Positions 6,001 to 9,000 of a stretch of DNA of 10,350 bases are shown piece after piece. This stretch comes from a virus (taxonomy: Duplodnaviria; Heunggongvirae; Uroviricota; Caudoviricetes): IMG/VR virus record IMGVR_UViG_2698536559_000019, one strand, 5' to 3'. A program made the position numbers. Every line of letters begins with the position of its first letter. The stretch's first letter is position 1.

Positions 6001-9000
6001 GCAGGGGCTACTGAAATCACGAAAGAAGAATATTTTGCCCGCAAAAACGGTACATACTCAGGTTTACAACAAAATACTGGTGCATCTGACACGACCGCAC
6101 AACCAGAGCCGGTAAAAGTTACCGCTGACGAAGTAAAGAAAATTATGCAGGCAGCCAATATCAGCCAGCCTGACGCCAATCAGTTGCTCGCCGCATCACG
6201 TGGTGAATTTGTTGCAGGGATTAGCGACCCGAATGATCCGAAATGGGTGAAGGGGATTGAAACCCGCGATTCAGTGAATCAGAACCAGCAAGAAACGGAA
6301 CAGAACGACCAGAAAGCGGAACAAAACAGCCAAAATGCGTTACAAAACGAGCCAGAAACGAAACAACCTGAACCAGTAGCGCAACAGGAGCCGGAAAAAG
6401 TCTGCACCGCCTGCGGTCAGAGCGGTGGCGGCAACTGCCCTGATTGTGGCGCGGTGATGGGCGACGCAACATACCAGGAAACATTCGATGAAGAGAATCA
6501 GGTTGAAGTTCAGGAAAATGATCCGGAGGAAATGGAAGGCGCTGAACATCCACACAAGGAGAATGCTGGCAGCGCTCAGGACCACGCCAGCGATAATGAA
6601 ACTGGCGAGACGGCAGCTCCCTTAATTGCGGTGAACGGTCATCACATTATCACATCCACCAGCAGAGTGTGGTACCACCTGATGATCGACCTTGAAACAA
6701 TGGGAACCAACACCAATGCGCCCATCGTGGTTATTGGTGCGGTTTTCTTCGACCCACAAACAGGGGAAATCGGGCCAGTATTTTATATCGTTATCAGTCT
6801 GACTGACGCAATGAATACAGGGGCTGTTCCTGACGGTGGAACCATCGAATGGTGGCTGAAGCAGTCCAGTGAAGCCAGAGCTGCCATTTTAACAGACCAG
6901 GTAAAACTGAAGGATGCCCTTTCGCGGTTTCGGGAGTTCATCAACGAATACTCAGATGAAAAATTCGTTCAGGTATGGGGTAATGGTGCAACGTTCGATA
7001 ACTCAATTTTGCGCACCTCATACGAACGCCTGGGCATCCCCTGCCCGTGGCATTACAGCAACGATCGTGATGTACGCACGATCGTTGAGCTGGGGAAAAC
7101 CATAGACTTCAATGCCAGAAGCGTAATTCCATTCGAAGGCGTACCCCACAATGCGCTGGATGACGCCCTTCACCAGGCAAAATACGTTACAGCCACTATT
7201 CAAAAACTGATCCCGAATCAGGCTGATTTTTAATGTTCAACCCTGATCGCCGTCTCCGAATTATATTGGCGGCGGTCATGCTGTAAGGCACGTGACCACA
7301 TGTATGAATTAACTCTATCGCCAGCAGAGATTCAAGAGATCACGAAATACAAGCGATACACAAGACAGCAACACCAGTTAAGACTGCACGGCATCCCATT
7401 TTTAATCGGGCCTAAAAACGAGCCGATAGTTCTACGCTGTGATATTCCACGTGGACTAACAGCAATGTCAAAAGTATCTGAACTGGTTTCTGCTGACCCC
7501 GATTTTGAGGCACTGAATAATGGGAAGACCAAGAAAAGACAAAAAAGATAATGTACTGCCACCGCGCGTTAGATCGAATGGTTACAGTTACGTATGGAAG
7601 CCCAAAGGAAGCACAAGAACGATAAAGCTCGGAAGAGTGCGGGAAACCAGCGTGGCTAAAGTCTGGCAAAATTATGAACTGGAAAAGGCAAAACTCCACG
7701 ACATAATGACCGTAGCTAAATTATGGCACATGTTTATGGACTCCCCTGCATTTACAGAACTGGCCCCCCGAACCCAAAAAGATTATTGGCAACATCAAAG
7801 GGCATTACTGGCGGTATTCGGGAAAATGCTTGCTGATAATGTAAAAATTGAGCAGGTAAGAATTTTCATGGATAAGCGGGGTCTTGAGAGCAAGACCCAG
7901 GCAAACCATGAACTGGCAAGTCTGAGTCGCGTATACGGATGGGGATATGAGCGTGGGTATGTGAAAAATAATCCATGCAAAGGAGTCAGAAAATTCACGC
8001 TTAAAGCCCGTACTGTTTACATCACCGATGAACAGTATGCTGCGATATATGCGGAAGCAATTCCACAGTTACGTATTGCAATGGAGATATCCTATCTCTG
8101 TGCGGCAAGGCTCGGTGATGTGCTCGAGCTGAAATGGCAGGATATTATGGACAAAGGGATTTACATTGAGCAAAACAAGACCGGCACCAAACAAATCAAG
8201 GAATGGTCTCCACGATTACGTACGGCGATCCAGTTAGCCCGAAATGTATCTTCCGGCACATGCGAATATGTGATCAACACAACCAAAGGCGGGAAGGTAA
8301 TAGCCAAGACGCTGAACAACTGGTGGAATCAGGCTAAACGTGCAGCCGAGCAAAAAGCCGGCGTTCCGTTTGGGTGCAACTTCCATGACATAAAAGCCAA
8401 AGGGATTTCAGATTACGAAGGCAGCAGTCGCGACAAACAAATTTTCAGTGGACACAAAACAGAAAATCAGGTGTTGATTTACGATCGTAAAACCAAAATC
8501 ACGCCAACACTGGATTTGCCGCTTGTGGTCAGTAAGTAGGCAATACAGAAAATTTTCTGGCAAAAAGACCTGGTATATTAACTCTGAATAACTCCCTAAC
8601 ATCTTGATTTTTCTTGGTGTTAAGTCTGATTAACTTTTCAGCTACTTTGCGTATTATACTGATTTTTCTTTATTTTTCTTCGGTCTTGAAAACCGGCGAC
8701 CCGAAAGGGTTCCAGAGTTCGAATCTCTGCGCTTCCGCCAAATAATCAAGGGGTTACCAAATGGTAGCCCCTTTGCTTTTTTGGCTCTTGGTATAAACTT
8801 GGTATACCAATTGGTATATTTTTATTCGGATGAGATTATCGGTCATGAGCGGAACCTCAGGTTCCTCGTCTAATGCCGCTCTTGCAACACGTTACGCTGC
8901 CGAGTATTTTTGTAAAACATGGACTGCTCCAGGCCTGAACCAGGCAGAAGGATACAAAGCCACCTCAGATCTGTCGCATCACTATTTTCGTGCAGAAGGC

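Follow-up and report, generated by a model that had tools for sequence, protein, structure and literature searches.

Lysine in place of the second catalytic arginine in a lambda-type phage integrase and across its clade

Arg II, the second catalytic arginine of tyrosine recombinases, is 99.1% conserved across these enzymes (PMC2943603), and its replacement in a phage integrase raises the question of whether such an enzyme still works. We address this question for the integrase gene (int) of a virus of the Caudoviricetes, IMG/VR record IMGVR_UViG_2698536559_000019; the whole stretch of 10,350 nucleotides that was analysed is called the window below. The original prediction for this DNA had placed a lysine at the position of lambda Int Arg311 and had offered two readings, a catalytically weakened integrase that would immobilise its prophage or a natural lineage variant. 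The reading we favour, with a probability of about 0.85, is that the window encodes a working lambda-type integrase of a clade that has lysine at this position (Lys-type), which would target the tRNA gene serT together with an overlapping DUF4224 gene, its activity being read from that of its relatives.

Active site of the window integrase

The int product matches the tyrosine recombinase/phage integrase family PF00589 over residues 168–323, with 34.9 bits against a Pfam cutoff of 27.1, while a search of NCBIfam returned no specific model and only a sub-threshold match to XerC. Lambda Int provided the only matches of a phmmer search of the PDB (E 1e-16 to 1e-11; E 1e-16 to 6e-16 for chains 1z1b, 5j0n and 1z1g), and the alignment spans residues 1–318 of the window protein and starts at residue 1 in both proteins. 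The AlphaFold2 model has a predicted local distance difference test score (pLDDT) of 93. Its best PDB fold match in Foldseek is full-length lambda Int (1z1b; E 5e-18, template modelling score 0.68–0.81), and lambda Int, Tn1549 Int, XerA, IntI and Cre are all matched with a probability of 1.00. Residues 17–60 of the model form a three-stranded sheet with a helix and, as in phmmer, the Foldseek alignment begins at residue 1 of both proteins; by both methods the N-terminal domain is homologous to the arm-type DNA-binding domain of lambda Int (residues 1–64). By sequence and predicted fold the protein is thus placed among the lambda-type heterobivalent integrases. It shares with lambda Int the three-domain architecture including the N-terminal arm-binding domain (MGRxR...LPP...NGY), and in both phages a xis-like gene overlaps the start of int. 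The two proteins are, however, only ~21–24% identical, and the gene upstream of the window int encodes a DUF4224 protein rather than lambda Xis.

Within the catalytic domain, phmmer aligned FHDIKAK of the window integrase under FHELRSL of lambda Int at high posterior probability, so that Lys292 corresponds to lambda Arg311. Its codon, AAA at 8393–8395, lies in the frame of the int reading frame (7520–8539). Lys292 also occupies the Arg II column in MAFFT alignments with phage homologues and lambda, and it lies within helix 289–298 of the AlphaFold2 model. The other active-site residues (Arg I, Asp, Lys, His II, His III and Tyr) all line up with their lambda Int counterparts. In particular, Arg I is Arg197 in AARLGDV (AGG, 8108–8110), aligned with lambda Arg212 and invariant in 119 of 120 aligned sequences; Lys220 in EQNKTG aligns with lambda Lys235 and is invariant in 120/120; His II is His289, in register with lambda His308; and His312 and Tyr321 align with lambda His333 and Tyr342 and are conserved in 114/120 and 116/120 sequences, respectively. 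Of the RKHRH pentad, only Arg II (H-x-x-R) is absent. A second difference is found in box I, which reads CAAR in the window integrase and TGQR in lambda. Thus, the phmmer, MAFFT and fold comparisons agree in upholding the proposed lysine at the lambda Arg311 position, and the motifs that had been assigned to Arg I, the catalytic Lys and the His/Tyr pair were read correctly.

The window protein is a member of PF00589, of the Lys type, with every defining feature of the family present except Arg II. We keep this assignment despite the missing arginine because Arg II is not absolute in the family: Gibb et al. found Lys at this position in 0.5% of >12,000 tyrosine recombinases (PMC2943603).

Conservation of the lysine and covariation with box I

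An AAA codon at a catalytic position could stem from a sequencing or assembly error in the window. The same codon and motif are present in the independent assemblies of Escherichia coli EC12, phage Evi and the Sakai prophage Sp4, whose integrases have identical motifs and differ from the window protein at 2, 7 and 14 residues. In addition, annotated integrases almost the same as that of the window occur in 750 of 5426 complete E. coli genomes, and a protein cluster of 1765 members carries the motif. Because so many independent assemblies contain the same codon, error can be excluded for practical purposes.

We then asked how far the lysine extends beyond these close copies. Among the nearest homologues, sampled as the 120 best 90%-identity clusters (55–96% identical, from many genera of Enterobacterales), FHD[ILV]KAK was present in 116. 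A distant sample came from an exhaustive HMMER search of 1.84 billion cluster representatives, which yielded 118 full-length 50%-identity representatives with E below about 1e-31. In these, the Arg II column contains Lys in 89 and Arg in 28, and Lys-type and Arg-type sequences alike retain Arg I, Lys, His II, His III and Tyr. On a rough neighbour-joining tree rooted on lambda, Fitch parsimony required two Arg/Lys changes with Arg at the root, a switch count that is not to be over-read. Finally, a scan of genomes with a degenerate pattern, using one genome per species, revealed 327 loci whose products are relatives bearing the motif; these come from Enterobacterales, Aeromonas, Shewanella, Photobacterium, Idiomarina and other groups, and 80 of them were kept for locus analysis. 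Judged from these sequences, the lysine marks a large, old clade of gammaproteobacterial phage integrases with H-D-[I/L]-K-A-K in box II and C-A-A-R instead of T-G-x-R in box I.

Of the 80 loci, 53 encode the lysine as AAA and 27 as AAG, and an Arg codon (AGA/AGG) is one transition away from either. Since both Lys codons are used although Arg is a single transition away, the lysine appears to have been maintained through synonymous change. The ratio of nonsynonymous to synonymous substitution rates (dN/dS) of the window int is 0.06 against Sp4 and 0.08 against Evi, which indicates strong purifying selection. Taken together, codon usage and dN/dS are what is expected when both the residue and its gene have been maintained.

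The integrase is also found in different prophage backgrounds. In the species-representative set the closest integrase is that of Escherichia albertii NBRC 107761, with 98% amino acid identity, and the DNA surrounding it is only ~84% identical to the window. It follows that prophages which differ elsewhere share the integrase module, in a mosaic fashion.

Of all alignment positions, the one that tracks Lys or Arg at Arg II most closely lies three residues ahead of Arg I. Cys is combined with Lys in 80 of the 89 Lys-type representatives, and Thr, as in the canonical TGxR, with Arg in 25; the combination of Cys and Arg was not found among the 50%-identity representatives. All 80 genome loci have an x-C-x-x-R box I, and the window follows the same pattern, with LCAAR and FHDIKAK. 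As judged from the alignments, phylogeny confounds this Thr-to-Cys covariation, given that the Lys-type sequences form a nearly monophyletic group. It is conceivable, though we consider it doubtful, that Lys292 and Cys194 did not arise as a neutral swap but form an alternative, mutually adapted configuration of the active site, with a balance of cleavage and ligation that differs from Arg-type enzymes throughout the clade. If so, covalent or Holliday-junction intermediates might be longer lived, or dependence on accessory proteins or supercoiling might be stronger, and the clade of tRNA-targeting integrases would offer a natural experiment on Arg II function.

A different explanation is that Lys292 is no functional equivalent of Arg II and that another arginine, from elsewhere in the protein, extends into the active site, in the way that IntDOT makes up for the Arg I it lacks; the CTnDOT subgroup provides the precedent (PMC8138268). 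One candidate is residue 232, which is Arg in 75 of the 89 Lys-type and in 6 of the 28 Arg-type representatives, and Lys306 shows a similar bias. Arg232 and Lys306 are, however, each lacking in 15–20% of the Lys-type sequences, whereas Lys292 defines the group, and a search among the representatives for a compensating basic residue present in every Lys-type but in no Arg-type sequence found none. His289, Asp290 and Ala293, which neighbour Lys292, are invariant among the 30 Lys-type sequences of one alignment. Moreover, modelling on Cre and the activities of Cre R292K and vaccinia topoisomerase R223K show that a lysine can function at this position. With no arginine found to be universal among the Lys-type sequences and missing from the Arg-type ones, we regard a relocated arginine of the IntDOT type as very unlikely.

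Attachment site and activity of Lys-type integrases

When the window was aligned with the attL and attR sites of EC12 and with phage Evi and Sp4, an invariant block emerged downstream of int, which we define as the common core of the attachment site (Table 1). The EC12 prophage is 99% identical to the window and lies in the order hyaA, tRNA-Ser, prophage, yccA. To the left of the core the window matches the phage arm of attR (int side), and to the right it matches the phage arm of attL (espV side). ARAGORN found no complete tRNA in the window, the serT-derived segment being limited to the 3' 59–60 nt. By this alignment the window corresponds to P-O-P' (attP), the recombinant of the EC12 attL and attR sites. 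We considered that it might be an ordinary attR end of a prophage and rejected this, since the core is followed not by yccA but by the attL phage arm with the espV fragment, a tccP2-like gene and tail fibre. An attP-type junction is also found in phage Evi, and between two different lambdoid prophages in tandem in E. coli Z1323CEC0014 (positions 20001–24000 of the extracted locus). Since both arrangements exist, a free phage and an array of tandem prophages are both conceivable sources of the window. Window positions 7300–9300 are covered to at least 80% in 52 complete E. coli genomes.

The core is flanked by copies of TGGTATA. All five copies of the 10.35-kb window are located in the att region, where 0.77 would be expected for the window and 0 of 200 shuffles reached five; the direct copies of the int-distal cluster are spaced by 11–12 bp. 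These repeats look like candidate arm-type sites of a heterobivalent integrase. The three direct copies may be comparable to the three tandem P' sites of lambda, and as in lambda, repeated motifs, here candidate arm-type sites, are located on both sides of the core. In contrast to the 15-bp lambda core between gal and bio, the target here is the 3' half of serT with a 65-bp block of identity.

Attachment sites vary across the clade. In ~45 of the 80 loci, int is followed within a few hundred nt by a complete tRNA gene, and at least six tRNA targets are represented (Ser-UGA, Ser-CGA, Leu-UAA, Leu-CAA, Cys and Trp), so that the clade has radiated onto new attB sites. The polarity of the att core relative to int also differs within the clade. 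In the E. coli serT phages a tRNA-sense fragment follows int and the complete tRNA is found at the far, tail-fibre end of the prophage, while in Buttiauxella, Dryocola, Symbiopectobacterium and others a complete, convergent tRNA-Ser(UGA) lies ~100 nt after int.

The Lys-type motif is carried by the isolated temperate phages Evi, mEp390, ST64B, ZF40, KpF5, Chris1 and BUCT708/709. Phage Evi (LR597642) was isolated as a plaque-forming temperate coliphage (PMC6969025). It is 97.8% identical to the window over 96% of its length, has the same order of int, attP, espV fragment and tail fibres, and retains FHDIKAK in an integrase that differs at 7 of its 339 positions; the differences are a few percent of sequence divergence and an int start annotated further downstream in the record. 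The Sp4 integrase of the E. coli O157:H7 strain Sakai (ECs_1055; CP-933M in EDL933) likewise has 339 residues and an identical FHDIKAK, and its exonuclease, DUF4224 and int neighbours and its serT/yccA site are as in the window. Sp4 differs in its nucleotide identity of 92.4% and in being a defective single prophage in attL/attR form, as against the attP-type junction of the window. The integrases of ST64B (Sb28), ZF40 and coliphage mEp390 belong to the same clade at 42–49% identity and share FHDLKAK, a Y-L-C-x-x-R box I and a GH...Y-D-R ending, but these phages have other hosts and attachment sites, and relatives of their group adjoin tRNA-Ser(CGA) or tRNA-Leu(UAA). ST64B is identical to 118970_sal3, the source of the ZF40 record is an induced lysogen, and the annotation of the ST64B record calls its integrase similar to that of Sp14/CP-933U.

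Direct observations of excision come from two of these elements. Asadulghani et al. found that Sp4 was excised, circularised into the attP form and packaged after mitomycin C (PMC2669165), and a second report describes quantification of ST64B excision by quantitative PCR of attP (PMC12455584). Lysine at the same active-site position is also compatible with activity in other subfamilies. Cre R292K recombines in vivo and in vitro, and vaccinia topoisomerase IB R223K retains ~10% activity (PMC2943603). The natural Arg II-to-Lys integrase Pal_Y-Int_1 gave integration in 18.7% of plasmid-receiving Pseudomonas putida cells (PMC12884075). The engineered enzymes among these are non-adapted and show a ligation defect, whereas the lysine of the window integrase is ancestral to a clade and co-varies with box I. 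Both the natural occurrence of Lys at Arg II and the fact that such enzymes can be active are already in the literature. A classification paper on tyrosine recombinases mentions only the Arg I case of CTnDOT and not Lys at Arg II (PMC8138268). We found no paper naming the Sp4/ST64B/ZF40-type integrases a Lys-type clade with a box I Cys, and the description given here is a modest addition in that respect.

Several observations weigh against a working window integrase. Cre R292K accumulates the covalent intermediate, a ligation defect indicating that Lys is not neutral in a non-adapted scaffold (PMC2943603), and one of the two natural Lys-type integrases that were assayed failed (PMC12884075). 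Circles of Sp4 were seen only after mitomycin C, and those of Sp14 only weakly (PMC2669165), which is compatible with modest activity without being evidence for it. The available portions of the two reports describe no int knock-out alongside the measurements of Sp4 and ST64B excision, so that crediting this excision to the Lys-type integrase is our interpretation (PMC2669165, PMC12455584), and the latter report also implicates a second integrase, IntA, in the case of ST64B (PMC12455584).

The moderate activity of Cre R292K with its trapped intermediate, the dependence of Sp4 circles on mitomycin C and the near-universal conservation of Arg II are also what would speak for the weakened enzyme of the original prediction, that is, for an Arg-to-Lys mutation that disables or strongly weakens the integrase and locks the prophage in the chromosome. 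Against this, the lysine is found clade-wide and is no private mutation, it has been kept through synonymous codon turnover at a low dN/dS (0.06–0.08), and it occurs in plaque-forming and inducible temperate phages, so that many active integrases share the HDIK motif. Sp4 and ST64B excise, and the window itself is in the attP form. Relatives that are truly inactivated look different: in E. coli O26:H11-type genomes the homologous int at the same junction is split by an IS3-family insertion sequence (IS600). Such an insertion in int, unlike the lysine, is a real route to immobilisation of a prophage. We therefore consider a disabling mutation highly improbable, and the lineage-variant reading is strongly supported by the 116 of 120 clusters, the 89 of 118 representatives, the 327 loci and the isolated temperate phages.

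In a working integrase of the Lys-type clade, the enzyme and the DUF4224 protein would recombine the phage attP, with its 65-bp core and TGGTATA arm-type sites, with the 3' half of serT. We infer that Lys292 takes the role of Arg II and contacts a non-bridging oxygen of the scissile phosphate, with Tyr321 as the nucleophile and Arg197, Lys220, His289 and His312 supplying the remaining catalytic roles. Elsewhere in the active site, the surroundings, with the co-varying Cys of box I among them, have presumably adapted to the shorter Lys side chain, and any part played by Cys194 would lie here.

Neighbouring genes and meaning of the lysine

The features of the window are listed in Table 1. The DUF4224 protein is likely a recombination directionality factor, with a putative Xis function. 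Its gene lies directly upstream of int in EC12, Sp4, Evi and BUCT709, and tblastn detected it in 15 of the 80 related loci; Asadulghani et al. considered the copy in Sp4 to be probably non-functional (PMC2669165). Further upstream, relatives of the 826-residue protein are annotated as exonuclease or exodeoxyribonuclease VIII, and the gene is located upstream of xis/int in Sp4, Evi and ST64B. On the other side of attP, the tccP2-like gene has one 47-residue proline-rich repeat fewer than the EC12 copy, and a 1-nt frameshift near its 3' end changes the C-terminus from ...AEHGINTSKRS to ...ADAWH. The gene may be a variant or a pseudogene, or its repeat may contain a sequencing error.

Table 1 Features of the window, with coordinates in nucleotides of the 10,350-nt stretch
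Feature	Coordinates	Strand	Details
RelB-like antitoxin and RelE/ParE-like toxin pair	1700-2225		Early region; annotated so in the 99%-identical EC12 prophage
826-aa protein	4753-7233		C-terminal Rv2179c-like 3'-5' exoribonuclease domain (PF16473, E 1e-67); long acidic, low-complexity N-terminal part
DUF4224 excisionase-like open reading frame	7300-7551	+	83 aa; 32-nt overlap with the start of int; PF13986, E 9e-10; PHROG 1266 'excisionase', E 1.5e-19
Integrase gene (int)	7520-8539	+	339-aa open reading frame; lambda-type heterobivalent tyrosine recombinase with N-terminal arm-binding, core-binding and catalytic domains
Box I C194-A-A-R197	8099-8110	+	TGT GCG GCA AGG; Arg I, with Cys where canonical TGxR has Thr
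Catalytic Lys K220	8177-8179	+	AAG, in EQNKTG; beta2-beta3 hairpin
Box II F-H289-D-I-K292	8381-8395	+	TTC CAT GAC ATA AAA; His II present, Lys at the Arg II position
His III H312 and nucleophile Y321	8453-8482	+	CAC 8453-8455 and TAC 8480-8482, in GHKTENQVLIY
Candidate arm-type Int site TGGTATA	8571-8577	+	Int-proximal attP arm; conserved in Sp4, EC12 and Evi; putative binding site
attP common core	8681-8745	+	65 bp; 3' part of tRNA-Ser(UGA) serT, anticodon stem to CCA (end 8740), plus 5 nt
Candidate arm-type site cluster	8789-8818	+	Int-distal attP arm; three direct TGGTATA (8789, 8800, 8812) and one inverted (8803-8809)
espV fragment	8830-9027		Short open reading frame just inside the int-distal attP arm; in EC12, RefSeq gives an internal fragment of secretion protein EspV (pseudogene)
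TccP2/EspF(U)-like effector gene	9343-9955		Pfam EspF repeat, E 2e-74

The system itself is of a known kind. For annotation, the finding means that a Lys at Arg II of a tyrosine integrase should not lead to the enzyme being called inactive or its prophage immobile. Lys is the norm in a clade that includes the integrases of effector-carrying prophages of enterohaemorrhagic E. coli such as Sp4, of Salmonella ST64B and of Pectobacterium ZF40, where it goes together with excision, packaging and tandem integration. Enzymologists find in this clade, with its Thr-to-Cys covariation in box I, natural material on what Arg II contributes beyond its charge, a question that follows on the ligation defect of Cre R292K.

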